From: Gammaproteobacteria bacterium
GTDB lineage: Bacteria > Pseudomonadota > Gammaproteobacteria > UWMA-0217
Direction of reading: 5' to 3'
Assembly (NCBI GenBank): GCA_027031685.1
Contig: JALVPS010000223.1
Span: forward strand, 1-39,538
DNA: 39,538 nt
Shown: one piece after another, positions 3,280 through 39,519 of the stretch
How the letters are laid out: each line of letters begins with the position of its first letter
How positions within the stretch are numbered: position 1 is the first letter of the stretch
Notes under the pieces: model-generated
Told to the model about the DNA's origin: nothing
Database searches by the model: none
The model's input: only the letters and a program-made list of their open reading frames with translations
Program-made: the position numbers and the translations under genes

Positions 3280-3942
3280 TTAGCCATGATCCTGATCCAT
3301 CTTTGACTGCTCCTCGGCCCCTTCCTCCCCCTCCAGCGCCTCCAGGAACGCCATGACGGCCTTCTGCATCTGCCGGGGCCGCTCGCGGTAGAGGGCGATC
3401 AGGCGCTGCAGCTCGGCGCTGTCGGCGGCCACCAGGGCCAGTTCCGGCGGCATGGCCAGGGCGTACACGGGCACTTCCAGGGCCTCGGCCAAGGGTTGCA
3501 GCACGTCCGCCGGCACCTGGTCCGTGCGGCCGTCGAGGATGTCGGTGATGGTCTCCACCGGCACGCCGGAGCGCTCGGCCAGCATCTGCCGCGACAGGCC
3601 GCGGTGGTTCATGAGCACCAGCAGGGCCTTGCCCCACACGTCCGCCGGGCTGCTCACCTCCAGGGTGACGGTCATGGGGGCGGGGGTGACCATCGTTTCC
3701 TCGATGGGTCCGCTCCGATCAGGGAAGTCGATGTCCATCCAGCCCCTTGGTAACCCGATGGCGCTCTCTATGTCTCGCGCCAGCTTCTCCCCGATCCGCT
3801 TCACGCCTTTCAGGCATCTGGACACGTAATCAGGCTGCCTACCAATGGCGTCGGCAAACCGCTTCTGGCTGCCGCGCTTTGGCTTGTATCGCTCCCTGAT
3901 GAGCCAAGCCATGTTCTCGCGCCTGATGTCGTAGATGTCCAT
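3280..3942 (-). CDS. CI-like phage repressor with two XRE-type HTH regions
   Basis: The ATG 3942 start (MDIYDIRRENMAWLI..) is chosen over the longer ORF. HTH-like segments QKRFADAIGRQPDYVSRCLKG and LSRQMLAERSGVPVETITDIL. Divergent from a cro-like gene. Confidence 0.8.
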   Translation of the reverse strand: MDIYDIRRENMAWLIRERYKPKRGSQKRFADAIGRQPDYVSRCLKGVKRIGEKLARDIESAIGLPRGWMDIDFPDRSGPIEETMVTPAPMTVTLEVSSPADVWGKALLVLMNHRGLSRQMLAERSGVPVETITDILDGRTDQVPADVLQPLAEALEVPVYALAMPPELALVAADSAELQRLIALYRERPRQMQKAVMAFLEALEGEEGAEEQSKMDQDHG

Positions 3943-3976
3943 GCCGCAAGTTTCCCCGCCATATACCGCCGGGTAA

Positions 3977-3992
3977 ATGCCCTGCGGGGCAT
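3977..3992. promoter_or_regulatory. candidate operator palindrome ATGCCC-TGCG-GGGCAT
   Basis: 6-bp inverted arms in the cI/cro divergent intergenic region. Confidence 0.3.
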
Positions 3993-3997
3993 GGTTG

Positions 3998-4026
3998 TTG
4001 ACCGTAATGTGACCTAGGGGTAAAGT
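3998..4026 (+). promoter_or_regulatory. candidate rightward early promoter (TTGACC-17 nt-TAAAGT)
   Basis: -35 at 3998-4003 and -10 at 4021-4026. The cro-like ATG is at 4035, so the transcript would be leaderless or nearly so. Confidence 0.35.
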
Positions 4027-4034
4027 TTCTTGGT

Positions 4035-4265
4035 ATGGAAAAGCTACGCGCATATCTGAAGACCCTTTCGCCTGATGATCAGGACGCCTTCGCCAAGCGG
4101 GTTGGCACCACCATCGGCTACCTGCGCAACGCCCTGAGCACGGGCAAGCGGCTGGGGCCGAACCTGGTCATCGCCATCGAGCGCGAGACCAACGGCGCCG
4201 TGCGCTGCGAGGATCTGCGCCCGGATGTGCCCTGGCACGTGCTGAGAGGCTCCGAGGCGGCCTGA
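4035..4265 (+). CDS. Cro / YdaS-like HTH regulator
   Basis: 76 aa, AFAKRVGTTIGYLRNALSTGKRLGPNLVIAIERETNG. Divergent from the repressor. Confidence 0.75.
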   Translation: MEKLRAYLKTLSPDDQDAFAKRVGTTIGYLRNALSTGKRLGPNLVIAIERETNGAVRCEDLRPDVPWHVLRGSEAA

Positions 4266-4297
4266 CGATGTTGTCCCTCGGCTATCCCCCCGAGCTT

Positions 4298-4325
4298 GCG
4301 CCCCTTTCGAGGGGCGCTGTTTTCT
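4298..4325 (+). terminator. Rho-independent terminator between cro-like and cII-like genes
   Basis: GCGCCCCT-TTCG-AGGGGCGC stem followed by TGTTTTCT. Confidence 0.6.
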
Positions 4326-4378
4326 GGGCGGAACTGATATGTGACGGCGGTCACGTTTCATGCCCGGGAGGCTAGGCC

Positions 4379-4654
4379 GTGCCCGATGCAAGCGCACGCA
4401 ACCTGCAGCATCTGATCCTCCTGCGCGTTTCCCAGGTGGGGATGCAGTCGGTGGCGGAGTCGCTGGAGGTGGCCACGTCCACGGTGTCGCGCTGGGTGTC
4501 CTGCCAGCAGGGCATCCCGCTGGACAAGCTGGAGGACCTCTTCGAGGTGCTGGGGCTGTACGTGAGCGAGGACAGCACCAGCACGCAGGAGATTCGCGTC
4601 TCCACGGCGCACTACGAGGCGCTGCGCACGCTGGCGCGGGAGGCGTTGGATTGA
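4379..4654 (+). CDS. CII-like HTH regulatory protein
   Basis: GTG 4379 lies 8 nt after GGGAGG. HTH segment QSVAESLEVATSTVSRWVS. Its position after cro matches the lambdoid layout. Confidence 0.55.
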   Translation: MPDASARNLQHLILLRVSQVGMQSVAESLEVATSTVSRWVSCQQGIPLDKLEDLFEVLGLYVSEDSTSTQEIRVSTAHYEALRTLAREALD

Positions 4655-4787: not shown

Positions 4788-5765
4788 ATGGCGAGAATAC
4801 GGACTGTGAAACCAGAGTTCTTCTCCGACGAGGATTTGGCTTCCTGTTCGCCTCATGCCCGCCTGCTAGCCATAGCGGTTCTGCAACTCTGTGACAGGCG
4901 CGGCAGGTTCAGGTGGTTACGCATGCAAGTTCACGCGCATGCGTTTCCGTTCGAGGAAGACCTGGACATCGAAGGCCTTGCCGGCGAGCTGGAGGCCATC
5001 GGGTACTTGAAGCTGTATGAGGTGGATGGCCGGCGTTACTGCTGGGTCTGCAACTTCGAGCAGCATCAGCGGATCTCCGGCAAGGAAGCAGAGGCGGAGA
5101 GCACTATTCCGCCCTATGATCCACTGAAAAATCAGGTTGTTACAGATGTGCGTGAAGGGAAGCACCCGGGGAAGCACCCGGGGAAGCACCCGGGGAAGCA
5201 CCCGGGGAAGCACCCGGGGAAGCACCCGGGGAAGCACCCGGGGAAGCAGTCGGAATCCCAGGAAAGGGAAAGGGAAAGGGAAAAGGAAAGGGAAGAAGAG
5301 AACTTTGTCGCGTTCGCTGCGCGAGACGCGACCGCGCGGCCGGCGTCTTCATCGCCCACCGATGAGGCAACGGATGATCACGGCCACACGGGACGTGGTG
5401 GCGGCCCAGAGCCGAACCGTGACGATCCGATCCAGCAGGTGTTCGACTACTGGCGGGTGGTGATGGATCACCCGCGTGCCAAACTGGACGAGAAGCGCAG
5501 GCGCCTCATCCGCAATGCCTTGAAGCGATACAGCGTGGAAGACTGCCAGCTGGCCATCCTGGGGTGCTCGATGACGCCACACAACATGGGCGAGAACGAT
5601 CGCGGGCAGAGGTACGACGGCATCAACGTGATCTTCCGCGATGCCGACCAGATCGATCGGTTCATGCGCAACGCGGAAAGTCCGCCGACGACCACGAAAT
5701 CGAAGGCCGGATTTTCTGATCCAGGCTATTCCTATGAAATTCCAGAGGGGTTTGCAAATGCTTGA
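4788..5765 (+). CDS. replication initiation / replisome-organizer-like protein with internal GKHP repeat
   Basis: ATG 4788 lies 7 nt after GAGGA. N-terminus RIRTVKPEFFSDEDL. C-terminal segment (VFDYWRVVMDHPRAKLDEKRRRLIRNALK..NVIFRDADQIDRF) resembles the conserved phage replication C-terminal domain. It precedes a DnaC-like loader with an overlapping stop/start. Confidence 0.6.
   Translation: MARIRTVKPEFFSDEDLASCSPHARLLAIAVLQLCDRRGRFRWLRMQVHAHAFPFEEDLDIEGLAGELEAIGYLKLYEVDGRRYCWVCNFEQHQRISGKEAEAESTIPPYDPLKNQVVTDVREGKHPGKHPGKHPGKHPGKHPGKHPGKHPGKQSESQEREREREKEREEENFVAFAARDATARPASSSPTDEATDDHGHTGRGGGPEPNRDDPIQQVFDYWRVVMDHPRAKLDEKRRRLIRNALKRYSVEDCQLAILGCSMTPHNMGENDRGQRYDGINVIFRDADQIDRFMRNAESPPTTTKSKAGFSDPGYSYEIPEGFANA
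5157..5252 (+). repeat. perfect 12-bp tandem repeat GGGAAGCACCCG x7 plus one degenerate copy
   Basis: Read directly; encodes (GKHP)7-GKQS inside the replication gene. Confidence 0.95.
5260..5302 (+). repeat. 43-nt homopurine tract with GGAAAG hexamer repeats
   Basis: Read directly; encodes EREREREKEREEE. Confidence 0.9.
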
Positions 5766-14843: not shown

Positions 14844-14864
14844 ACGCCCGGAATCGCCCGGCAC

Positions 14865-14896
14865 GGGTGACATTTGTCACCTGTAAAATGTCACCT
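14865..14896 (+). repeat. 32-nt element GGGTGACATTTGTCACCTGTAAAATGTCACCT, copy 1
   Basis: Identical to 35297-35328. Lies between a terminator and the protease/scaffold gene. Confidence 0.95.
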
Positions 14897-14918
14897 CCCG
14901 TGGGCCACCCTGCGGCCC

Positions 14919-17218: not shown

Positions 17219-17233
17219 GGGCCGAAAACGCGA

Positions 17234-17266
17234 AACCCCGGCCAGTGGGGGCTGGACCGGGGTTTC
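17234..17266. terminator. hairpin with flanking A and T runs after the capsid gene
   Basis: AAACCCCGGCCAG-TGGGG-CTGGaCCGGGGTTT. Confidence 0.55.
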
Positions 17267-17332
17267 TGGGCAATCCGCTAGACGAGGTAGCGAATGTCCC
17301 TGGACATGAACTTTATCAGAGTGCGCATCTGC

Positions 17333-17446
17333 ATGAGAGCACAGGCAAGCACAGAAGGAGCGGACCGGGCATTCCTGCTGCTCGGTATCGCCGCCGTCAT
17401 TCTGGCCAGTTGCGCCGGTGCGGCGCTCGTGCTCTGGGCGCTGTAG
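17333..17446 (+). CDS. small hydrophobic peptide (37 aa)
   Basis: MRAQASTEGADRAFLLLGIAAVILASCAGAALVLWAL. No strong SD. Confidence 0.3.
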   Translation: MRAQASTEGADRAFLLLGIAAVILASCAGAALVLWAL

Positions 17447-17450
17447 AGCC

Positions 17451-17585
17451 ATGACCACGCCGGAAATCATTGCAACCGGACTGATTTTCATCATCGCGTG
17501 GCGCCTGCCGGAAATCATCCGCGCCACGCGGTGCGGTTCCGCGCGGCGCCGCGGAGGAGACGACGATGCTGGTCGAGATCACTGA
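17451..17585 (+). CDS. small membrane peptide, WRLPE-motif family member
   Basis: MTTPEIIATGLIFIIAWRLPEIIRATR.. shares the WRLPE(I/L)(I/L)RA motif with 36529..36675. Confidence 0.4.
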   Translation: MTTPEIIATGLIFIIAWRLPEIIRATRCGSARRRGGDDDAGRDH

Positions 17586-17747: not shown

Positions 17748-18212
17748 GTGGAGACCGGCCGCCTCACGCCCCACTTCAGCCTGGCGGAGCTGACCCGCTC
17801 CCACGTGGCCCTGCGGGGGGGCATCGACAACACCCCGCCGCCGGAGCGGCTGCCGGCCCTGCGCTACCTGGCGGAGCAGCTGGAGGTGATCCGCACCCTG
17901 CTGGGCGGCGTGCCGCTGCACATCACCTCCGGCTACCGCTGCCCGGCGCTCAACCGGGCCGTGGGCGGCTCGCGCCGCTCGCGCCACATGCTCGGCCTGG
18001 CCGCCGACTTCGTGGCCCCGGAGTTCGGCACCCCGCTGGAGATCGCCCGCCACCTGGTACAGCAGGGCAAGGCCTTCGACCAGCTCATCCACGAGGGCCA
18101 CTGGGTGCACTTCGCCGCCCCGCGCCGCCCGCTGCGGCCCGAGGGGCGCCTGCTCACGGCCCGCTTCGGGCCGGGCGGCGTGCGCTACGAGGCGGGGCTG
18201 GACGAAGGGTGA
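17748..18212 (+). CDS. endolysin, peptidase M15 (zinc D-Ala-D-Ala carboxypeptidase-like)
   Basis: FSLAELTRS.., ITSGYRCPALN, SRHMLGLAADF, HWVHF. Confidence 0.8.
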   Translation: METGRLTPHFSLAELTRSHVALRGGIDNTPPPERLPALRYLAEQLEVIRTLLGGVPLHITSGYRCPALNRAVGGSRRSRHMLGLAADFVAPEFGTPLEIARHLVQQGKAFDQLIHEGHWVHFAAPRRPLRPEGRLLTARFGPGGVRYEAGLDEG

Positions 18213-18218
18213 CGGGGG

Positions 18219-18359
18219 ATGGCGCTGGACCGCCTGGAACAATCGAAAACGCTGCGGCGCATGTACTACGCCGCCCTGCTCGCCATGGTCCTGGTGGCCG
18301 TGGTGCGCAGCCTGCCGGCGCTGTTGCAGGCCGTCGCGGCGTTGACCACCACTCACTGA
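18219..18359 (+). CDS. small membrane peptide, distant family member (46 aa)
   Basis: RRMYYAALLAMVLVAVVRSLPALLQAVAAL aligns with RRLAWGLLTVLVYWRLPELLRAVAEIV. Confidence 0.45.
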   Translation: MALDRLEQSKTLRRMYYAALLAMVLVAVVRSLPALLQAVAALTTTH

Positions 18360-19161: not shown

Positions 19162-19626
19162 ATGCCCGCGAGCACCTGGCTGGTGGGGCAGGCGGCCTAC
19201 GTGGCCCGCTTCGGCCACGGCGAGTGGACCGACCTCACCGACACCGACGGCAGCGGCCAGCCCGACGGGGACATGGTGGCCGCCGCCGTGGCTGACACCA
19301 CCGCCGACGTGAGCCGCTACCTGCGCCAGGCGGGCTACGGCGCCCTGGTGGGGCAGGCCGAGGGCGTGCCGGAGGACCTGCGCCGCCGCGCCCTGGACAT
19401 CCTGCGCTACCTGCTGCACCGCAACCGCCCCAGCGACGAGGTGCGCGAGCGCTACCGGGACGCCGTGGCCTGGTTCGACGCCCTGGTGGCCGGCGACGTG
19501 GTGCTGTACGGCGCCGACGGTCAGCCCCTGCCGCGCCGCGTGGACGAGCCCAACCGCGCCCACCGGGCCGTGGGCAACACGCGGCGCATGGTGTACGGCG
19601 CGGACTTCCTGCGGAGGTACGGATGA
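19162..19626 (+). CDS. Mu gp36 / DUF1320-like head-tail connector protein
   Basis: 154 aa; ..ADVSRYLRQAGY..LDILRYLLH.. pattern and its position. Confidence 0.6.
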   Translation: MPASTWLVGQAAYVARFGHGEWTDLTDTDGSGQPDGDMVAAAVADTTADVSRYLRQAGYGALVGQAEGVPEDLRRRALDILRYLLHRNRPSDEVRERYRDAVAWFDALVAGDVVLYGADGQPLPRRVDEPNRAHRAVGNTRRMVYGADFLRRYG

Positions 19627-19736
19627 GCGGCAGGGCGGCAGGCATCACGGGCATCCTGCTGGCCGTCTCGGCGGTGATCGGCGCGGTGGCGCTGCTCATC
19701 TGGTCCGTATCGGCGCTGGTGGGGGTGCTGCGATGA
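19623..19736 (+). CDS. small membrane peptide (37 aa)
   Basis: ATGA overlaps on both sides; ITGILLAVSAVIGAVALLIWSVSALVGVL. Confidence 0.35.
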   Translation: MSGRAAGITGILLAVSAVIGAVALLIWSVSALVGVLR

Positions 19737-21272: not shown

Positions 21273-21273
21273 G

Positions 21274-21313
21274 AAAAATGAAAAGCCCCTGCGGTGGTGG
21301 GACACCCAGGGGC
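21274..21313 (-). terminator. GC hairpin with T-run on the - strand (A-run on +)
   Basis: GCCCCTG-15 nt-CAGGGGC preceded by AAAAATGAAAA on the + strand. Confidence 0.4.
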
Positions 21314-21343
21314 ACGGCAATCACCAGCACGAGTGGTGACTAC

Positions 21344-21493
21344 GTGAGCAAGTATAGCAAGGCACTGCGAGAGCTCAGAAAGATGGGAGAAAGACTGCCC
21401 GCCTGGCGATTCCTGGCCCTGCTGGCCTTCGTGCTGCTGGCCGAGCTGGCCCTGCTCATCGCCTGGCGGCTGCCCCTGCTGCTGGACCACTGA
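21344..21493 (+). CDS. small membrane peptide, KYSKAL / WRLP family (49 aa)
   Basis: GTG 21344. VSKYSKALRELRK..LPAWRFLALL..AWRLPLLL is paralogous to 36315..36452, with many synonymous differences between them. Confidence 0.5.
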   Translation: MSKYSKALRELRKMGERLPAWRFLALLAFVLLAELALLIAWRLPLLLDH

Positions 21494-21514: not shown

Positions 21515-21877
21515 ATGGCCATTGTGCGCGGCAAAGACGACGCCTACTGGTGGCAGGTGCACCACAAGGTGCCGGTGGACGACGGCCGCTACGCCGCCGT
21601 CTCCCTCAAGGCCAAGTTCAAGCGCCTGGACAAGGCCCGCGTGGGCCAGGTGCTGGACGCCATCACCAATGGCGACGCCAGCCTGAGCGACGAGGACCTG
21701 GTGCGCGAGGTGCTGCTGGACTGGAAACAGGTGCGCGGCCTGGAGCTGGAGGACGGCAGCGAGCCCAGCTTCGCCGTGGACGACCAGCGCGAGTGGGTGC
21801 TGGGCATCATCGGCATGGAAGCGGCCATCGTGCGCGCCTGGGCCGAGAGCGTCACCGGAGGGCGCCTAAAAAACTGA
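21515..21877 (+). CDS. tail assembly chaperone (gpG-like)
   Basis: 120 aa upstream of the tape measure, ending at a slippery site. Confidence 0.7.
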   Translation: MAIVRGKDDAYWWQVHHKVPVDDGRYAAVSLKAKFKRLDKARVGQVLDAITNGDASLSDEDLVREVLLDWKQVRGLELEDGSEPSFAVDDQREWVLGIIGMEAAIVRAWAESVTGGRLKN

Positions 21878-22224
21878 CGGAGGCGGCCCGCCGCTGGGCG
21901 GAGGGCGACGGACAGGCGCAGGCCGCCGCCGACGCCCTGGGCGTGGCCGGCGTGGCGCCGGCGGAGGACTACGAAGTGTGGTCGGAGAACTGGGCCGTCT
22001 TCGAGTGCTTCACGCTCTGCCAGTGGCAGTGGGTGGGCGGCATGGGCGTCATGCGCGCCGGGCTGGACCAGGCCGCCGCCTGGGCGCTCATCGAGCGCCA
22101 CCCGGACATGCCCGACGACCGCCGGGCGCGCTGGGCGGCCTTCGAGGCCCTGCAGCTCATGGCCGCCGAGGCACTGGCCGTGTGGGCCGGCTCAGGAGGA
22201 CAGCCAGCGGATCGTGTCCACTAG
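21515..22224 (+). CDS. tail assembly chaperone -1 frameshift product (gpGT-like, DUF1799-like extension)
   Basis: The -1 frame is open from the slippery site to 22224. The extension contains ENWAVFECFTLCQWQW..GLDQAAAWALIE. Confidence 0.6.
21868..21874 (+). other. -1 programmed frameshift heptamer A-AAA-AAC
   Basis: X XXY YYZ in the zero frame (cta aaa aac tga), directly before the gpG-like stop. Confidence 0.6.
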
Positions 22225-30226: not shown

Positions 30227-33200
30227 ATGGCACTGATCGCCCGCTGGCAGTTCGACGAGGGCAGCGGCACCACGGCCGCCGGCAGCGCCGGCAGCGAGCC
30301 GGCCTGCTCGCTCATCGGCAGCGTCGGCTGGACCGCCGGCAAGTTCGGCCAGGCCATCCACGTGCCGCAGGACAGCGGCGCCCGTGGCGAGGTGGCGCAG
30401 TGGACCGGCTTCCAGAGCGCGCAGACGACGTTCTCCTACGCCGCATGGGTCAAGATGGACACCTGGACCGGCTCGCCCATCCTGGCCGTGGTGTCCGTGC
30501 CGTATGCCGCTGGCGACTGGCGGCGGGCCTTCCAGATCAGGGTGGCCCATTGGGACGGCACCATCATGGTGACGCTCTACGACGGGTCCAGCCATCAAAT
30601 CTTCGGCGGCAAGGCCATCAACGACGGTCAGTGGCACCATGTGGCCGTCACCTATGACGGCAGCACGGCGAAGCTGTACGTGGACGGCGACCCAGATGGC
30701 AGCATGGCCCTGTCGGGCTTTTCCGCGCCCTACACCGGCGAGGCCATCCAGGTGGCCGGCGACCGCAACGGCGCCAGCGACAGCCTGGCCGGCGCCCTGG
30801 ACGACCTGCGCATCTACGACCACGCCCTGAGCCAGAGCGAGATCCAGGGCCTGCTCAACCCCGTCACCGTGCTGGCCGGCGCCGATGCCACCCTGGGCCT
30901 CGACGCCACCGCCGGGGCCGTGGCCGTGCGCCACCAGCTGGCCGCCGTCTCCGCCGCCGCCGACACCACCGCCGGCGTGGGCGGGCTGGGGCAGCGCCAT
31001 GAGCTGGCCGGCCCGTCCGCCGCCGCCGACCTGACCGCCACCAGCGGCGCCCTCGTGCAGCGCCAGCGGCTCGCCGGCGCGGGCGCCACTGGCGACACCG
31101 GCGCCACCACCGGCCTGCTGCAACAGCTGCAGCGCCTGGCCGCGGCGGCCGCCGTGGCCAGCGCCCTCACCATGCCCGCCGCCGCCCTCACGCAGCGGCA
31201 CGGCCTGGCCGACGGCGCCCCCATCGTGCCCACCGCCGCCAGCGTGGCCGGTCTCGGCCAGCGGCACGAACTGGTGGGATTGGCCGCCGCCGCCGCCACC
31301 GAGGCCCCCGGCGCGGCCCTCACCCAACGGCACGCCCTGGGCGGGGCTGGCGTGGTGGTGGATGGCGCGGCCAACGGGGGCGCCCTGGGGCAGCGGCACG
31401 GGCTGGTGGGATGTGACGTCCTGGTATACAGCAACGCTGACTCGCAAGTCTGGCCGCTGACCATCGATGGGCAGACCAGCGGCGCGCAGCTTGGGTATAG
31501 ATGGATTATAGGTGACCTCATTGAGGTGCCGGACATCTCGCGCTCCTACCGGCTATCGGCCCTGTTGCGCCAGCGCACAGCGCCGGGGGCCGACCCCGAT
31601 TCCGATCCGCGCCACTATGCGGGTTTCTCCTGCTATGACGCTGATGTAAAAAGCATTTTTCCGCGTAATTTCTACATCCCAAACCCGGCCACCATGACCC
31701 GACTGGCGCAGCCGCTCGATTATGGCGACACCGAGATCGTGCTGGAGAGCACCGCCGGGTGGTCCACCGATATGCACTTCTTCTTTGCCGCCTATGGCTA
31801 CACCGACGGTCAGGGGCGCACCTATCCCGATTGGTACTACACCCGAGACCTCTTCTATTTGTTCAACCGGGCGAGCATTGACGGCAACCGCCTGGTTCTC
31901 TCCAAGCCGTGGTTGGGTCCACGCAAGCCGGCCGGCACGGCGGTGGCCAATACGCGGAATGCCAGTACCTACAACTATGTTCTGCGCGCATATAAGACGT
32001 TGCCGAGTGATTGGCGCCGATACGAGGCGCTTATCAAAGGGGAGCAGCCGTCAGTGCACGGGGTCTACTTCATCAATTTCCGCCCTGCCACACGCTTTGT
32101 ATCGCCCGTGTTGGGCGTTAATTACTGGGGCCCGCATACCATCGTCGAGTGGGACGGATGGGAGCTGGCTTCCGACGGCCCGCTCGCCCAACGCCATGGC
32201 CTGGCCGCCCCTTATGCCACCCTCGACACCGCCGCCGACCCCGGCCCGCTGGCCCAGTCCCATGCCCTGGCCGCGCCGGGGGCGGTGGCCGACCTGCAGG
32301 CGGACGCCGGCGCCATTCCCGTCCAGACCCATGTGCTGGCCCCGGCGGGGGTGTCCGCGCCCCTGCTGGCCGATGGCGGCGCGCTGGGGCAGCGCCACGG
32401 CCTGGCCGCCCTGTTCGCCGTGCTCACGGTGGCGGCGGACGGCGGCGGCGTCACGCCCACCCACGCCCTGGTGGGCGGCCCGCTCACCCTGAGCCTGGAT
32501 GCGGACACGGGCGCCCTGCGCCAGCACCAGCGCCTGGCCGGCGAGAACGCCACCATCGGCCTCTACCCCTGGCGCGAGGGGCTGGGCCAGACCCACGTGC
32601 TGGCCCCCGCGGCCCTGGCCGCCGACGGGGCGGCGGACGGCGGCCCGCTCGGCCAGCCGCTGCCGCTGGCGGGTGTCGGCGGCGAGCTGGCCACGGCCGC
32701 CGATGCCGGCCCGGCGCGGCAGGATCACGCCCTGGCCGCCACCGGCCCGACCGTGGAGGCCACCGCCACCGCCGACGGGCTGGGCCAGCGCCACGCCTTC
32801 GCCGGCGCGGGCGCCCAGGCCGGCAGCGACGCCACGGCCGGCCCCCTGGGCCAGCGCCATGCCCTGCAGGATGGCGGGGCCGTCACCACGCCCCAGGCCA
32901 CCACCGGCGCCGTCCTGCCCACCCACGTGCTGGCCCCCTGGCCCATGGTGGTGGAGACCGGCTCCCTCAATCCCGAGCTGATCGAGCACCACCTGCTGGC
33001 CGCCCTGCCGGCGGAGACGGCCACGGTGGTGCCCGGCCTGCGCCTCACCCAGCGCCACCCCCTGGCCGGGGCCGGGGCCGAGCTGCCCCTGCAGGCCGAC
33101 AGCGCCCCGCTCAGCCAGCGCCAGCGGCTCGCCGCCAGCCCGGCCGTGGTGGACACCGCGGCCGATGGGGGTGCGCTGGGGCAGGCCCACCGCCTGGCCG

Positions 33201-35302
33201 GGGCGGATGCGCGCGCCGACGCCGTGCACCCCCTGCCGGCCCTCACGCAGCGCCACGGCCTGGCGGGGCAGGGCGCGGCGAGCACGCCCGAGGCCGCCGC
33301 CGGGGCGCTGGTGCAGACCCACGTGCCCGCCCCGCACGCCCTGCGCGTGACCCCCGAGGCCACGGGCGGCGCACTGGTACAGTCCCACGCCCTGGCGGGC
33401 GGTGCGCTGGCCGCCGGCCTCACCGTGGCCGATGGCGCACTGGCCCTGCGCCACCTGCTGGCCGGCGTGTGGGCCGCGCTGGATGCCGCAGCCGGGCAGG
33501 GCGGGCTCACCCAGCGGCACGCCCTGGCCGGCCTATCCGTGATCTTCGAGACAGAGATCCCGGGCAGCCGCATCCATATCGGCTATCCCCTCAAGTCCGA
33601 CGGCTGGCAGGTGGACACCGCCGCCGACACGGGCCCGCTGGCGCCCGTGCACGCCCTGGCCGCCCAGGCCGTGGCCGCCACCGTCGAGGCGGCCGGCGGG
33701 GCGCTGGTGCAGCACCACGGCCTGCAGGGCCTCCCCGCCGCGGCAGACAACGGCGTCGGCACCGGGGCCCTCGTCCAGACCCACCCGCTGGCCGCCACCG
33801 GCGCCACCGCCGAGGGCCTGGCCGACGCCGGCCCCGTCACCCCCGTGCACGCCCTGGCCGGGGCCGCCGCCAGCGCCGGGACCGCGGCCGATGCCGGGCC
33901 GCTCGGCCAGCGCCACCACCCCGCCGCCCCCGGCGCCGCCGCGGACGCCCTGGCCGATGCCGGCCCGCTGGGCCAGCGCCACGCCCTGCAGCCGGCCCCG
34001 GCCGGGGTGGACCTGCGCCCGGACACCGGCGCCCTCAGCGCCCTGCACCGCCTGCAGGGGGCGGACGCCGCCAGCGCCACCGTCCTGCCGCGCCCGGCGC
34101 TCATCCAGCGGCACGGCCTGGCCGGCACCGGCGCGACGGCGGACACCGCGGCCGCCACCGGCCCCCTCGATCAGCGCCATGCCATCGCCCTCGCCGCCGC
34201 CACCAGCGACACCACGGCCGACGCCGCCCCCGTGGGCCAGCGCCACCGGCTCACCGCCATCGGCGGCAACACCGACCTGCGCGCCGACACCGCCCACCTG
34301 GGCCAGCACCACCGCCTGACCGGGCAGGACGCCGCCGCGCCCCTCATTGCCGTGGCCGACCGCCTGCGCCAGCACCACCCGCTGGCCGGTCTCGATGCCG
34401 CCGTGGACAGCGCCGCCGACGCTGGCGCCCTGACCCCCGAGCATCGCCTGGCCGCCCCCGGCGCCAGCGTGGACAGCACCGCACCGGCCGCCGCCCTCGT
34501 CCAGACTCACCCGCTGGCGGCGGCGGGCGCCACGGTCGAGGCCATCGCCGACGCGGCCCCCCTCGTGCAGCGCCACGCCCTGCGGGACGACGGCCTGACG
34601 GTGGATGCCCCCGCCGCCGCCGGTGCCGCCATCCAGCGCCACGAACTGGCCGGCGCGCCGTCGGTCACCGACCTGGCCGCCGATGCCGTTGCCCTCGTCC
34701 AGCGCCACGATCTGGCCGCCCCGGCCGCCGACACCGCCCTGCAGGCCGCCGCCGGTGCCCTCGTCCAGCACCACCCCCTGGCCGCCGCCGGGGCAGAGGC
34801 AGACAGCGCCGCCGCCACCGGCGCCCTGGTGCAACACCAGGTGCTGGCTGCCGCCGCCGTCGAGACGCGCCTGCAGGCCGCCGCCGGCCCCGTCACGCCG
34901 CGCCACCTGCTGGGCGGCGCGCCGGTCGCCACCGGGCTGGCCGCCGGCCTCGGCCCCCTCGTGCAGCACCAGATGCTGGCCGGCGCGGAGGCCGCCAGCG
35001 AGGCCGTCGCCACCGCCGCCCGCCTCGTCCAGCGCCACCTCGCGGACGGGCAGGGCGCCGTCATCGAGGCCGCCATGCCCGGCCTGCCCATCGCCCAGCG
35101 GCAGACCCTGGCCGCCCCCGGCGCGCAGGCCGACACGGCCGCCGCCACGGGCGCCCTGGTGCAGGACCATCACCTGGTAGATGCCGGGCTGGAAGTCGCC
35201 CTGGAAGTGAGCATCATCGGCTTCGAGCTCAACACCGACGTGCTCAGCGTGGAAGTCGTCACCGCCCGCAAATGGGTGGTGCCGGACCGGCGGCGGGGGT
35301 GA
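30227..35302 (+). CDS. giant tail fibre-like protein: LamG-like lectin domain, about 50 Q-x-H-x-L-A repeats, central globular domain
   Basis: N-terminus WQFDEGSG..WHHVAVTYDGSTAKLYVDGD..LDDLRIYDHALSQSEIQGL (Laminin_G_3 pattern), then a 21-22-aa periodic repeat. Confidence 0.75.
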   Translation: MALIARWQFDEGSGTTAAGSAGSEPACSLIGSVGWTAGKFGQAIHVPQDSGARGEVAQWTGFQSAQTTFSYAAWVKMDTWTGSPILAVVSVPYAAGDWRRAFQIRVAHWDGTIMVTLYDGSSHQIFGGKAINDGQWHHVAVTYDGSTAKLYVDGDPDGSMALSGFSAPYTGEAIQVAGDRNGASDSLAGALDDLRIYDHALSQSEIQGLLNPVTVLAGADATLGLDATAGAVAVRHQLAAVSAAADTTAGVGGLGQRHELAGPSAAADLTATSGALVQRQRLAGAGATGDTGATTGLLQQLQRLAAAAAVASALTMPAAALTQRHGLADGAPIVPTAASVAGLGQRHELVGLAAAAATEAPGAALTQRHALGGAGVVVDGAANGGALGQRHGLVGCDVLVYSNADSQVWPLTIDGQTSGAQLGYRWIIGDLIEVPDISRSYRLSALLRQRTAPGADPDSDPRHYAGFSCYDADVKSIFPRNFYIPNPATMTRLAQPLDYGDTEIVLESTAGWSTDMHFFFAAYGYTDGQGRTYPDWYYTRDLFYLFNRASIDGNRLVLSKPWLGPRKPAGTAVANTRNASTYNYVLRAYKTLPSDWRRYEALIKGEQPSVHGVYFINFRPATRFVSPVLGVNYWGPHTIVEWDGWELASDGPLAQRHGLAAPYATLDTAADPGPLAQSHALAAPGAVADLQADAGAIPVQTHVLAPAGVSAPLLADGGALGQRHGLAALFAVLTVAADGGGVTPTHALVGGPLTLSLDADTGALRQHQRLAGENATIGLYPWREGLGQTHVLAPAALAADGAADGGPLGQPLPLAGVGGELATAADAGPARQDHALAATGPTVEATATADGLGQRHAFAGAGAQAGSDATAGPLGQRHALQDGGAVTTPQATTGAVLPTHVLAPWPMVVETGSLNPELIEHHLLAALPAETATVVPGLRLTQRHPLAGAGAELPLQADSAPLSQRQRLAASPAVVDTAADGGALGQAHRLAGADARADAVHPLPALTQRHGLAGQGAASTPEAAAGALVQTHVPAPHALRVTPEATGGALVQSHALAGGALAAGLTVADGALALRHLLAGVWAALDAAAGQGGLTQRHALAGLSVIFETEIPGSRIHIGYPLKSDGWQVDTAADTGPLAPVHALAAQAVAATVEAAGGALVQHHGLQGLPAAADNGVGTGALVQTHPLAATGATAEGLADAGPVTPVHALAGAAASAGTAADAGPLGQRHHPAAPGAAADALADAGPLGQRHALQPAPAGVDLRPDTGALSALHRLQGADAASATVLPRPALIQRHGLAGTGATADTAAATGPLDQRHAIALAAATSDTTADAAPVGQRHRLTAIGGNTDLRADTAHLGQHHRLTGQDAAAPLIAVADRLRQHHPLAGLDAAVDSAADAGALTPEHRLAAPGASVDSTAPAAALVQTHPLAAAGATVEAIADAAPLVQRHALRDDGLTVDAPAAAGAAIQRHELAGAPSVTDLAADAVALVQRHDLAAPAADTALQAAAGALVQHHPLAAAGAEADSAAATGALVQHQVLAAAAVETRLQAAAGPVTPRHLLGGAPVATGLAAGLGPLVQHQMLAGAEAASEAVATAARLVQRHLADGQGAVIEAAMPGLPIAQRQTLAAPGAQADTAAATGALVQDHHLVDAGLEVALEVSIIGFELNTDVLSVEVVTARKWVVPDRRRG

Positions 35303-35328
35303 CATTTGTCACCTGTAAAATGTCACCT
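35297..35328 (+). repeat. 32-nt element GGGTGACATTTGTCACCTGTAAAATGTCACCT, copy 2
   Basis: Identical to 14865-14896. Contains the fibre gene stop (35300-35302). Confidence 0.95.
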
Positions 35329-35384
35329 GCGCCGCCCGATCATCGGGTCTCCAGACTACCGACCGCCCCTTGGAGACCCGACCC

Positions 35385-36237: not shown

Positions 36238-36243
36238 GGAGGG

Positions 36244-36286
36244 CACAAAAAACCCCCGCGACGCGGGCAACGTCCGGGGGCCGTGG
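36244..36286 (-). terminator. GC hairpin with T-run on the - strand, copy B
   Basis: AAAAAA-CCCCCG-c-GACG-CGGGCAA-CGTC-CGGGGG. On the - strand it reads as hairpin + TTTTTT. Confidence 0.5.
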
Positions 36287-36314
36287 CAACCACCAACGCA
36301 CTCTTGGTGATCAC

Positions 36315-36452
36315 GTGAAGAAGTATAGCAAGGCATTGAAAGAATTGAGGCGACTCCTAGAACACATGCCCGCCTGGCGTTTCATCCTGCTCCTGCTGCC
36401 GCCCATCCTGTGGGCCGCGGCACAGCTCATCCGCGCCGTGCGCTGGTGGTGA
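36315..36452 (+). CDS. small membrane peptide, KYSKAL family (45 aa)
   Basis: GTG 36315; VKKYSKALKELRRLLEHMPAWRFILLLLPPILWAAAQLIRAVRWW. Confidence 0.5.
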   Translation: MKKYSKALKELRRLLEHMPAWRFILLLLPPILWAAAQLIRAVRWW

Positions 36453-36460
36453 CGGGCTGA

Positions 36461-36501
36461 ACAAAAAACCCCCGCGACGGGGCAACGTCCGGGGGCCGTG
36501 G
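36461..36501 (-). terminator. GC hairpin with T-run on the - strand, copy C (near-identical to copy B)
   Basis: ACAAAAAACCCCCGCGACGGGGCAACGTCCGGGGGCCGTGG. Confidence 0.5.
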
Positions 36502-36528
36502 TCGATCACTGGACAGGGCAGTGATTAC

Positions 36529-36675
36529 ATGGTTGATCTTAAGCATGTGACGAGCATCCTGCAAATGCTCCACGAATCCAAACCGCTCCGCCGGCTCGCC
36601 TGGGGCCTGCTGACCGTGCTCGTCTACTGGCGCCTGCCCGAACTGCTGCGCGCCGTGGCGGAGATCGTCAGGTGA
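36529..36675 (+). CDS. small membrane peptide, WRLPE family (48 aa)
   Basis: MVDLKHVTSILQMLHESKPLRRLAWGLLTVLVYWRLPELLRAVAEIVR. Confidence 0.45.
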   Translation: MVDLKHVTSILQMLHESKPLRRLAWGLLTVLVYWRLPELLRAVAEIVR

Positions 36676-36685
36676 GGAGGCGCCC

Positions 36686-37771
36686 CTACGCCGCCGCCTT
36701 CCCGTGCGACTCCCCGCACAGCGGGCAGGGCAGCCCCTGAACCACCAGCGCCTCGCGCAACCAGTCCGGCCGCTCCGGCAGCCGCCCCTTCATCTCCTTG
36801 CGCCACCTGCGTGCCACCGCCGGCGTCCACGGCAGACCCGCGCCGATCACCTCCCGGTTGATGAACTCCCGCAGCTCCGCGCGGAAGGCCAGGAAATTGG
36901 AGAGATCCTCCCTGATCCGCTCCAGCTCCTCCTCGATCACCGGCAGGTGCGCCGTCGTCAGCTCCGCCAGCGAGCGCACCCGGCACAGCACCCGCAGCCG
37001 GTTCGCCACGTGCTCGCGCGCCCCGCCCTGGCTGCCCAGCCCGGCCACCGCCGCCGCCATCGCGTGCGCCAGCTCCTCCCGCTGCCGGAACGAAAGCGGC
37101 TCGCCACCGGCCGCCTCCGGCGCGGGCGCCGCCACGGACCGCCCGCCCTCGCCGGCCGGGATGTACTCCCCCTCCAGCACCACCTTCTCCAGCAGCTCCC
37201 CGGCCACCGCCATCGCCTGCGGAATCTGATCCGGCGTCAGCTGCTCCAGACTCTCGATACCCAGGCGCAGATTCACAATCGCATGCGCCTCGTCGTAGCC
37301 CAGCTTGCGCCCACGCGCCTCGGCCACCTTCACCACCCGGCGGATGGCCTTCACCAGCGGCTCGCGCTGCGCCTTCGTGGCGTGGGGGAGGGGCTTGGGG
37401 GGTTCCTCCGGCTGGGCTTTCTTCACCACCTGGCCGTTCCAGTAGCGCCAGAGCACCTCATCGCACTCGTCCTGGTAGCGCTCCAGCTTCTCGCGCACCT
37501 CCGGCTTGACCTTGGCCGGACTGATGGACATGAGCCAGCCGGGGAGCTTGCGCAGGGGGAGGCAGAGCATCTCGCGTTTCTTGCCGTCCTGGGCAACCGT
37601 TGGCATAAGCCAACACTTCCAACGAGGCTCCTTGAGCTTGGTGGATTGTCGTCCCCAGTCTATGCCCAGCGCGTCGCAGATCGGCCGGGCCGGGGTGTAA
37701 GGCTCGTGGTTGTGCTCGACGAGATAGAGGGTGTCGTCGTGGAAGGTGACGGGGATAAGGGATTGGTTCAT
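36686..37771 (-). CDS. phage antirepressor (P22 Ant N-terminal domain type)
   Basis: ATG 37771 after AGGAGA. LIPVTFHDDTLYLV..PICDALGIDW..LCLPLRKLPGWLMSISPAKV. Confidence 0.75.
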   Translation of the reverse strand: MNQSLIPVTFHDDTLYLVEHNHEPYTPARPICDALGIDWGRQSTKLKEPRWKCWLMPTVAQDGKKREMLCLPLRKLPGWLMSISPAKVKPEVREKLERYQDECDEVLWRYWNGQVVKKAQPEEPPKPLPHATKAQREPLVKAIRRVVKVAEARGRKLGYDEAHAIVNLRLGIESLEQLTPDQIPQAMAVAGELLEKVVLEGEYIPAGEGGRSVAAPAPEAAGGEPLSFRQREELAHAMAAAVAGLGSQGGAREHVANRLRVLCRVRSLAELTTAHLPVIEEELERIREDLSNFLAFRAELREFINREVIGAGLPWTPAVARRWRKEMKGRLPERPDWLREALVVQGLPCPLCGESHGKAAA

Positions 37772-37912
37772 GTCGGTTCTCCTGGCTTGAGGTTCGAGAA
37801 CCGCCACGCCTTTCCTGCCAGCAAAAGGGTGGCGGAGTGCGCGGGTTGGCAGACCGGGCCAGGGACCGGCGGGCCTTGCGGCCCCCCACGCACCCCACCA
37901 TTAAACGGGCAC

Positions 37913-37937: not shown

Positions 37938-38031
37938 GGTGCGCCTGGACTTCGGGCTGCCAAACCCGGTCACCGATGTGCGGTGACGGGGTGAGCGTAG
38001 ACCCGGGGGCGCGTGGTGTCAACGGAAATGC

Positions 38032-39282: not shown

Positions 39283-39519
39283 TGTGACATAACCGCTTCG
39301 ATGCCCTAGAAAAAACAATCACTTGCAAAGCATCTGCCGCGCCGCGAATGTCACATTCAGACCCAAAAAACTAGCCTGAAATCAAAGCGATACGGCACAT
39401 CGGCCAACCCTCTACGAACCAGGTGGTCGGAGGTTCGAATCCTTCCGGGCGCGCCATTTTTCAATCACTTACGTGCGTTCTTCTGGCCCCCTTGTGACAT
39501 AAATCGCCTGCTGTGACAT
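39283..39519. repeat. four TGTGACAT motifs flanking the tRNA fragment on both sides
   Basis: 39283-39290 (+), 39348-39355 (-), 39493-39500 (+), 39512-39519 (+). Two share GTGACATAA and two share ACATTCAG. CAATCACTT also occurs twice (39316 and 39461). Confidence 0.7.
39412..39456 (+). other. 3' half of tRNA-Arg(ACG), from the anticodon loop to CCA; probable att core, not an intact tRNA
   Basis: CTACGAACCAGGTGGTCGGAGGTTCGAATCCTTCCGGGCGCGCCA closely matches the 3' half of enterobacterial tRNA-Arg-ACG. No complementary 5' acceptor strand, D-arm or 5' anticodon stem is present upstream. Confidence 0.7.

Follow-up and report, generated by a model that had tools for sequence, protein, structure and literature searches.

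The contig JALVPS010000223.1 (GenBank assembly GCA_027031685.1; Gammaproteobacteria, UWMA-0217) is a temperate siphovirus contig with a GC content of 69%, and its whole length of 39,538 nucleotides (nt) is called the window here. Its late genes are on the + strand, from ~8.1 to 36.2 kb. The subject of this study is a pair of small adjacent cassettes, A and B, at positions 36244-36675, in which a leader with two hairpins precedes the gene of a membrane peptide. The parts follow one another as an A-run, a GC-rich hairpin (hairpin 1), a second hairpin (hairpin 2) that has a 7-nt loop and contains ribosome-binding bases, a start codon, and an open reading frame (ORF) for a membrane peptide of 45-50 amino acids (aa). 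Four cassettes with this anatomy are found in the window, namely A (36247-36452), B (36463-36675), C (21273-21493), and F (17222-17446). They were the only ones returned when both strands of the window were scanned jointly for an A-run and hairpin at most 110 nt upstream, an opposite-strand TAnnnT motif just inside the ORF, and a hydrophobic ORF of 25-95 aa. The distance between A-run and start codon is 63-69 nt in all four, in two metagenomic relatives (L004 and L014), and in the copies of enteric phages, despite unrelated sequence. With some reserve, we favour reading the cassette as a translational gate, formed by an mRNA hairpin and a cis-antisense RNA, for a small single-pass membrane peptide of the late operon.

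An earlier annotation made from the letters alone (the sequence-only reading) had described two hairpins and a peptide of 45 or 48 aa in each of A and B, and all of these parts are present. Hairpin 1 of A is identical to that of B save for one extra C, and no third site in the window has it. The predicted fold of hairpin 2 forms on both strands in A and in B. In the + strand fold of A, an outer helix (CGTGG/TCACG) extends to the G of the start codon, and in the - strand fold G-U pairs lengthen the stem to 11 bp. The Shine-Dalgarno (SD)-like bases lie in the 3' arm of hairpin 2 as had been stated, and the folds pair the start codon as well. The GGTGATC of this arm in A is complementary to the 3' end of 16S ribosomal RNA. 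The ATG of B was placed correctly at 36529; the start codon of A is the GTG at 36315 and not at 36306. Both peptides are hydrophobic and single-pass by sequence, and the GC pattern by codon position in their ORFs fits coding on the + strand. The GC content at third codon positions (GC3) of the two ORFs is below that of neighbouring genes.

Cassette C contains a hairpin 1 that differs in sequence from that of A and B, includes a GGCAA, and has a GTG after hairpin 2. The sequence-only reading had counted five peptides (A to E) as cassette members. This count was incomplete, as it overlooked the complete cassette F, the full leader of C, and a further ORF at 19623-19736; it was also wrong in giving the cassette leader to D and E, both of which are without one. 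The ORF at 19623-19736 encodes a 37-aa membrane peptide (MSGRAAGITGILLAVSAVIGAVALLIWSVSALVGVLR) between the Gp36-like and tail-terminator genes, and a 105-nt block within it (19627-19731) is missing in the sister contigs L015 and L017. Coordinates are collected in Table 1.

Table 1. Positions of cassette parts, peptide genes, predicted antisense promoters, and the adjoining antirepressor gene in the window.
Feature	Position	Strand	Description
Cassette A hairpin 1	36247..36280	-	A6 36247-36252 and stem-loop 36253-36280; GC hairpin then U6 on - strand
Cassette A hairpin 2	36282..36315		6-bp core CACCAA/TTGGTG 36291-36309, 7-nt loop; folded in silico
Peptide A	36315..36452	+	45 aa, GTG start, VKKYSKALKELRRLLEHMPAWRF-[transmembrane]-LIRAVRWW; PHROG 6632 family
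Antisense promoter, cassette A (predicted)	36322..36350	-	Extended -10 TGCTATACT 36330->36322; weak -35 near 36350->36345
Cassette B hairpin 1	36463..36495	-	A6 36463-36468 and stem-loop 36469-36495; T6 on - strand
Cassette B hairpin 2	36497..36531		7-bp ATCACTG/CAGTGAT 36505-36525, 7-nt loop; outer helix CCGTG/CATGG pairs ATG
Peptide B	36529..36675	+	48 aa, ATG start
Antisense promoter, cassette B (predicted)	36536..36564	-	TTGCAG, 17 nt, TAAGAT; -10 at +13..+8
Cassette C leader	21273..21343		A-rich run 21273-21284; hairpin 1 GCCCCTG...CAGGGGC 21285-21313; hairpin 2 TCACCA/TGGTGA 21321-21339, 7-nt loop
Peptide C	21344..21493	+	49 aa, GTG start, immediately 3' of tail-tube gene; PHROG 6632 match
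Antisense extended -10, cassette C (predicted)	21359->21351	-	TGCTATACT
Cassette F leader	17222..17293		A-rich run; hairpin 1 17233-17265; hairpin 2 CGCTA/TAGCG 17276-17292, 7-nt loop
Peptide F	17294..17446	+	50 aa, membrane; between capsid gene and D
Antisense extended -10, cassette F (predicted)	17318->17310	-	TGATAAAGT, 9 nt further into ORF
Peptide D	17451..17585	+	WRLPEIIRA motif; start 4 nt past F stop; 3' part overlaps next gene; without own leader
Peptide E	18219..18359	+	46 aa, without leader; between endolysin (17748-18212) and holin-like 64-aa gene
Antirepressor gene (Ant)	36686..37807	-	Convergent with B

Judged by sequence similarity, peptides A and C are members of a real, widespread, and mostly unannotated family of ~45-aa phage peptides. 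The PHROG 6632 profile matches A with E = 1.7e-8 over residues 4-45 of 45 and C with E = 3.4e-7; it does not match B, D, E, or F. A profile built from A and C retrieved 14 significant proteins among 1.84 billion protein representatives, conserved end to end including the C-terminal RWW. The family consensus is M-I-D-F-S-K-L-I-R-E-L-R-x-M-x-E-K-L-P-x-W-K/R-F, then a transmembrane segment and G-Q-V/I-R-W-W, and A matches it to the final RWW. The family alignment finds 80 loci in IMG/VR, usually unannotated, and tblastn with an enteric member finds 53 GenBank phages, most of which lack an annotation at the site. Among the latter are phages converting for Shiga toxin (Stx) types Stx1a, Stx2a, and Stx2c, the phages H-19B, CP-1639, and TL-2011c, the Salmonella phages SPN3UB, FSL SP-016, and SEN34, one Actinobacillus phage, and two Pseudomonas phages. 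The two annotated lambdoid records inspected, H-19B and SPN3UB, have the ORF between the endolysin gene R and Rz, where it ends 1-4 nt 5' of the Rz start. In Pseudomonas phage YMC11/02/R656 the family ORF is one of several clustered small genes that lie amid the tail genes. The statement that such peptides have no described function was half right, since A and C have a counterpart in PHROG 6632 (recorded with unknown function) as well as many unannotated relatives.

The peptides of the window are related to each other as a chain of similarities and not as the single tight family of five that had been suggested. Homology of A and C is clear, and the Smith-Waterman scores against shuffled sequences are uneven (z of 13.6 for A-C, 9.2 for B-D, 8.2 for B-E, 7.8 for C-D, and a weak 3.8 for A-B; A-E and D-E are not significant). 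When A, B, and C themselves were used in tblastn against GenBank phages there was no match, and the family surfaced only through the profile and the enteric query. A degenerate DNA pattern for KYSKAL gave chance matches only in IMG/VR. Relatives of the tube and capsid proteins in IMG/VR and in genomes were few, none of them with cassettes, and no relatives of the B/E-type peptides were found in IMG/VR. Searches of the peptides against Pfam, NCBIfam, and PADLOC gave no match, toxin and defence families included. A literature search found no paper that describes the peptide or the RNA.

Other small membrane ORFs were seen near Rz. SPN3UB has an unannotated 36-aa membrane ORF (MSKRDVSALCFLMAAAVAISGNDGWGWLIFAGIIIL) at 2386-2496 of the analysed locus, which overlaps the lysozyme stop and is upstream of the cassette. 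The Stx1 prophage Sp15 of Escherichia coli O157 Sakai has, at 3749-4464 of its locus, an antirepressor gene and a different 48-aa membrane ORF (ECs_5741) that adjoins Rz, between endolysin and Rz; no member of the 45-aa family is found in this lysis region. Small membrane ORFs just 5' of Rz may be a general feature.

The leader is conserved in structure. The comparison used 33 distinct enteric-type leaders and the Pseudomonas copy, and the definition of the shared leader is our own, drawn from these. All 33 and the Pseudomonas leader have a GC hairpin with an A-run on one side and a T-run on the other, followed by a second hairpin and a GTG or TTG start. Cassettes A and C fit this shared leader, with a terminator hairpin, an SD-sequestering hairpin with a 7-nt loop, and a GTG/TTG start. 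The loop of hairpin 2 is 7 nt long in 36 of 40 distinct leaders when all copies are counted. Its stems vary yet pair (CCTTG/CAAGG, CGTTA/TAACG, CCTG/CAGG, CATG/CATG, and CACCAA/TTGGTG of the window), and the outer helix that pairs the SD bases alternates between TTCT/AGAA and TTCC/GGAA. RNAalifold reports compensatory changes in 12 of 24 consensus pairs. The U-G pairs of the outer helix are viable on the + strand only, and therefore the mRNA hairpin itself is under selection. Because hairpin 2 is conserved with compensatory changes, in distant relatives too, the prediction that RNA structure gates translation is well supported by the comparison, the lock being the SD-pairing hairpin of the mRNA.

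Natural variants reveal that the cassettes are modular. Several metagenomic contigs are ~97-100% identical to the window, and they differ from it mainly at the cassettes. L003 (99% identical) is without window positions 21273-21377, and a 36-aa "short C" (MGGRLPAWRF...) starts 3 nt past the tube stop. L014, L020, and L022 have 36240-36349 replaced by ~21 nt and encode a leaderless "short A". In these three and in L019 the B leader is unchanged and is followed by a different, F-like peptide of 51 aa. After this peptide comes a leaderless "short B" of 38 aa in L014 and L019; L020 and L022 end before that point. Short B shares its last 27 residues with residues 22-48 of peptide B, apart from a single conservative change. 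In L015, F and D are missing after the capsid gene and a leaderless short F occurs at another position. The more distant relative L004 (69% tube identity, ~55% GC) has an A6 and hairpin, then a TCCTT/AAGGA hairpin with a 7-nt loop, and the full leader there precedes a B/E-like peptide of 51 aa, the stop codon of which overlaps the start of the endolysin gene. The reading frame is kept in alleles with and without the leader. The leader and the peptide core are thus separable modules. The two indel blocks that distinguish ~99%-identical phages, 21273-21377 and 36240-36349, each run from the A-run to the predicted -35, which is the whole of the predicted RNA gene.

The opposite strand of the leader has a terminator at one end and a conserved promoter motif at the other. 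Hairpin 1 had been described as an intrinsic terminator of the - strand, and a T6 does follow both copies directly. It had also been taken to stop transcription from the antirepressor gene ant. Rfam places the C4 antisense RNA (RF01695, 68 bits) at 37825-37905 on the - strand, just 5' of ant, and the a1/b1 target sites of C4 (RF03163, 57.7 bits) at 37949-38000 on the same strand; C4 RNA, a1/b1 sites, and ant together are a P1/P7-type immI (c4-ant) immunity operon. The first terminator on the path of the c4-ant transcript is hairpin 1 of B, and because none precedes it the transcript reads the entire B ORF in antisense. Stopping this transcript is thus a fair account of A and B, but it fails to explain C, F, and the relatives. 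As the same A-run and hairpin precede C, F, and the L004 peptide, where there is no - strand gene, hairpin 1 belongs to the cassette. It most likely ends a short antisense RNA that begins inside the peptide ORF. A U-run follows hairpin 1 only on the - strand in A, B, C, and the L004 copy, and F also has a weak TTTCT on the + strand. The - strand U-runs that make hairpin 1 an intrinsic terminator are U6 in A, B, and L004, UUUUCAUUUUU in C, and UUUCGCGUUUU in F. In A, C, F, and L004, hairpin 2 is longer on the - strand owing to G-U pairs.

Four N-termini that are unrelated in sequence, those of A/C, B, L004, and the F-like ORF of L014, have a -10 hexamer on the - strand at precisely +13..+8. In A/C it is TATACT and in the F-like ORF it is TACCAT, both with a TG extension, and the layout in L004 (TTGCAA-17-TAATCT) parallels that of B. 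TAnnnT occurs at 0.1% of window positions. Cassettes A, C, and F account for three of the only nine TGnTAnnnT sites of the window, and the AT-rich early region accounts for five others. The 33 enteric-type leaders all have TGCTAA(A/T/G)AT at +16..+8, where A and C also have TGnTAnnnT. All 36 distinct ORFs have a T at the end of codon 4 and AGC for Ser5. Third-position entropy is ~0-0.2 bits at codons 3-6 and 9-12 and amounts to 1-2 bits at the majority of degenerate codons in the range 23-43. The codons TAT and GCA occur in A and C, in a genome with a GC3 of ~95%. The predicted antisense RNA of A is ~68 nt long (36315->36247) and would start opposite the start codon. From these patterns we lean, with modest conviction, towards the existence of an antisense RNA.

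The gate could operate as follows. In the mRNA, hairpin 2 would pair the SD bases and the start codon and thereby hinder ribosome loading. The opposite strand would contribute a promoter in the first ~12 codons, its -10 placed at +13..+8 and often extended by TG, from which transcription would start opposite the start codon. Its product would be an RNA of ~66-78 nt that is comprised of the complement of hairpin 2 and of hairpin 1 with its U-run terminator. This RNA would be fully complementary to the leader, and first contact might be made through the complementary 7-nt loops, after which translation would be blocked or the mRNA cleaved. Only once late transcription outruns or silences the antisense promoter would the peptide be made, together with any gene that is coupled to its stop codon.

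Several observations weigh against such an RNA. The antisense promoters and start sites are all predictions, and the -35 boxes are weak. The -10 is not always at the same offset, being 9 nt further in for F and 3 nt closer for the Pseudomonas phage. Rfam scans of the window cassettes and of the relatives' loci gave no family, IsrK included, at gathering score at the cassette position. Hairpin 1 of the enteric and Pseudomonas relatives has U-runs on both sides, that is also on the + strand, and the U-G pairs of the outer helix work on that strand only; because of these two features a purely cis mechanism in the mRNA could explain much of the conservation. Conservation of the -10-like motif could be partly at the protein level because it overlaps the residues D-F/I-S-K, and the synonymous constraint extends to about codon 22, further than a -10 box accounts for. 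The U-runs on both sides, the U-G pairs, the weak -35 boxes, and the lack of an Rfam sRNA match would speak for cis-only control, in which hairpin 1 is a common terminator between late genes, in many cases bidirectional, or an element of RNA stability, hairpin 2 throttles translation, and the -10 motif is a by-product of N-terminal residues and an AT-rich start region. We regard this explanation as rather unlikely, though it deserves to be taken seriously. TAnnnT at an identical offset in four unrelated N-termini is improbable by chance given its frequency, and the AGC and the xxT codon are invariant while later codons vary freely. The high-GC cassettes A, B, and C retain the A-run and have no + strand T-run, and a - strand terminator in a + strand operon is pointless unless the - strand is transcribed. 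As a separate observation, rare codons are fixed at codons 7-22 of the 45-aa ORF in the loci L023-L098 (CGA in 35 of 36, TTG, TTA, CTA), well past the predicted -10, which suggests that a further constraint acts on the nucleotides, for example from an UP element, a -35 box, or long-range RNA pairing.

A classical type I toxin-antitoxin (TA) system, in which a membrane-damaging peptide is silenced in lysogens by an unstable antisense antitoxin for prophage maintenance or abortive infection, is an improbable account of the cassettes. In its favour are the small size and hydrophobicity of the peptides, the sequestered SD, the prediction of a cis-antisense RNA across the ribosome-binding site, and a weak sub-threshold match of the ohsC antitoxin model on the - strand of SPN3UB. 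Type I systems are also frequent in prophages (PMC7699646, PMC8621323). Scans for sigma-70 promoters and the listing of TGnTAnnnT put no + strand promoter near the cassettes, the upstream regions not having been scanned specifically for weaker ones, and on this ground the peptide would be transcribed only within the late operon. The cassettes directly adjoin late genes. Alleles without a leader exist in nature, are coupled to late genes in translation, and have no antitoxin, which argues against strong toxicity; together with the lack of a detected + strand promoter this makes a classical system unlikely. The lambdoid gene, moreover, is within the lysis cassette, right before Rz, and no toxin or defence family is matched. 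It is less probable still that the small ORFs are not genes and that the region consists of non-coding hairpin elements resembling repetitive extragenic palindromes (REP) or miniature inverted-repeat transposable elements, or of decayed intergenic sequence. Gene callers and GenBank annotators do mostly pass over the ORFs, and their GC3 is lower than in adjacent genes. The end-to-end conservation of the 14 proteins and the frame kept across alleles with and without leader stand against this, as does the pattern of substitution in the family, where the C-terminal half keeps its amino acids and varies at third codon positions. A REP-like element was rejected because hairpin 1 of A and B is found at these two sites only.

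The predicted RNAs of the cassettes are similar to the sar RNA of phage P22 (RF00262) in size, position, and two-hairpin shape. Work from the Susskind laboratory reportedly describes sar as a ~68-nt antisense RNA with its promoter inside the 5' end of its target ant, complementarity to the ribosome-binding region, and an intrinsic terminator in the sequence upstream. The sar model aligns over its full length to the - strand of the SPN3UB cassette with 19.1 bits vs a gathering threshold of 43, a further point against the antisense reading, and it does not match the window cassettes. As this score is far below the threshold, the cassettes are not homologous to sar, and the likeness to sar and ohsC is one of shape only. 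The target also differs, being a tiny membrane peptide of a late or lysis operon and not an antirepressor; the cassette mRNA has an SD-sequestering hairpin of its own, and the copies are multiple and modular. Type I TA systems (hok/sok, ldr/rdl, symE/symR, zorO/orzO, and shoB/ohsC) share with the cassettes a small hydrophobic peptide, an SD-hiding leader, and a short cis-antisense RNA, here predicted, over the start. These systems are often multi-copy and on prophages (PMC2887945, PMC8621323). In contrast to them, the cassettes tolerate leaderless alleles, are embedded in a lysis or structural operon, and encode peptides unrelated in sequence to Hok, Ldr, TisB, Ibs, ShoB, Zor, and other known toxins. 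The likeness to type I toxin mRNAs noted in the sequence-only reading thus holds for the logic of control, and membership finds no support, in view of the leaderless alleles and of peptides that match no known toxin family. The cassette gate would best be read as working like P22 sar or type I toxin control while being a member of neither.

The isrK-orf45-anrP region of the prophage Gifsy-1 is a functional analogue. There, a terminator hairpin precedes a 45-aa ORF that has its ribosome-binding site locked in structure and is coupled in translation to the gene after it; an antirepressor gene is nearby, and the same-strand small RNA (sRNA) IsrK opens the structure in trans (PMC4825925). Unlike in Gifsy-1, the conserved predicted promoter of the cassettes is on the opposite strand. 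An IsrK-like same-strand sRNA ending at hairpin 1 was rejected as the principal explanation, as no Rfam family reached threshold at the cassette position and no upstream + strand promoter was seen in the promoter scans. PHROG 6632 exists as a protein record only, and the leader, the antisense promoter, and the adjacency to Rz are in no description that we found. Phage morons and late-region sRNA genes such as AsxR/AgvB and Pas are small promoter-to-terminator units that are gained or lost among close relatives (PMC4104026; bioRxiv 10.64898/2026.05.13.724894). The cassettes are likewise small units between late genes, gained or lost among near relatives. AsxR/AgvB and Pas differ from them in being located between Q/pR' and the holin gene, in acting in trans on host RNAs, and in sequence. 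AsxR, AgvB, and other Rfam sRNA families were not found at the cassette position, the single STnc100 match, in L028, being at a distance of ~2.7 kb, and the locations of the Pas sRNAs are different from those of the cassettes. EcOnc33, a ~71-nt Hfq-bound sRNA of enterohaemorrhagic E. coli (Tree et al., 2014) and the one entry checked from that study, lies at the 3' end of nanS-p and was set aside.

The window also contains identified genes for the capsid, an endolysin, the tail tube, and a 1691-aa fibre, and searches of GenBank phages by megablast and blastn with the region and 21 kb of late genes gave nothing useful on close relatives. The tail-fibre-like ORF (30227-35302) contains ~30 imperfect 66-nt (22-aa) tandem units at ~30860-35190, each roughly "ALxQRHxLAGxGAxxDxxADxG". 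An element of ~32-46 nt (GGGTGACATTTGTCACCTGTAAAATGTCACC) is present at 14853-14898 and, in inverted orientation ~20 kb away, at 35295-35340; the pair flanks the head and tail genes, the sister contigs have the element too, and its possible roles include those of an operator, a promoter, or a recombination site. A perfect 12-nt tandem repeat (GGGAAGCACCCG, ~8 copies) is located at 5145-5264 within an early-region ORF. Positions 39422-39461 resemble a tRNA 3' end (GGTTCGAATCC...GCGCCA) followed by T5, for which ARAGORN makes no call, and this stretch may be a remnant of an attachment site. A CTAAAAAACT run at ~21868-21880, at the end of the 120-aa gene (21515-21877) 3' of cassette C, recurs at the equivalent place in L005 and looks like the usual -1 frameshift site of tail chaperones.

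The position of the genes bears on what the peptides may do. Peptide E, the L004 peptide, and the enteric family between R and Rz have a lysis-cassette position; A, B, C, and F are outside the lysis cassette. None of the peptides matches a lysis family. Because the lambdoid family members sit between endolysin and Rz, the peptides are more plausibly accessory lysis or envelope factors than addiction toxins, and they possibly serve in that capacity. To our knowledge, textbook lambdoid lysis cassettes contain no regulatory RNA between R and Rz. Tentatively, and short of an even expectation, a conserved and unannotated module made of a ~70-nt cis-antisense RNA and an SD-locking hairpin might be present in the lysis and late operons of many temperate phages, including Stx1- and Stx2-converting ones, where it would gate a 45-aa peptide and the coupled spanin or endolysin gene and so set the timing of lysis; its ~105-nt RNA gene would then be a self-contained "sRNA moron" that near-identical phages exchange. 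The timing of lysis is central to phage fitness, and in Stx phages it affects toxin release as well. If this were true, the antisense RNA would mean that phages as well studied as H-19B, SPN3UB, and the Stx-converting ones have a further level of control. A conserved micro-gene is unmarked in dozens of phage records, which is a gap in annotation. The cassettes would also, if the proposal is right, be a clear case of a regulatory RNA gene that comes and goes as one unit, with its target peptide retained in place.

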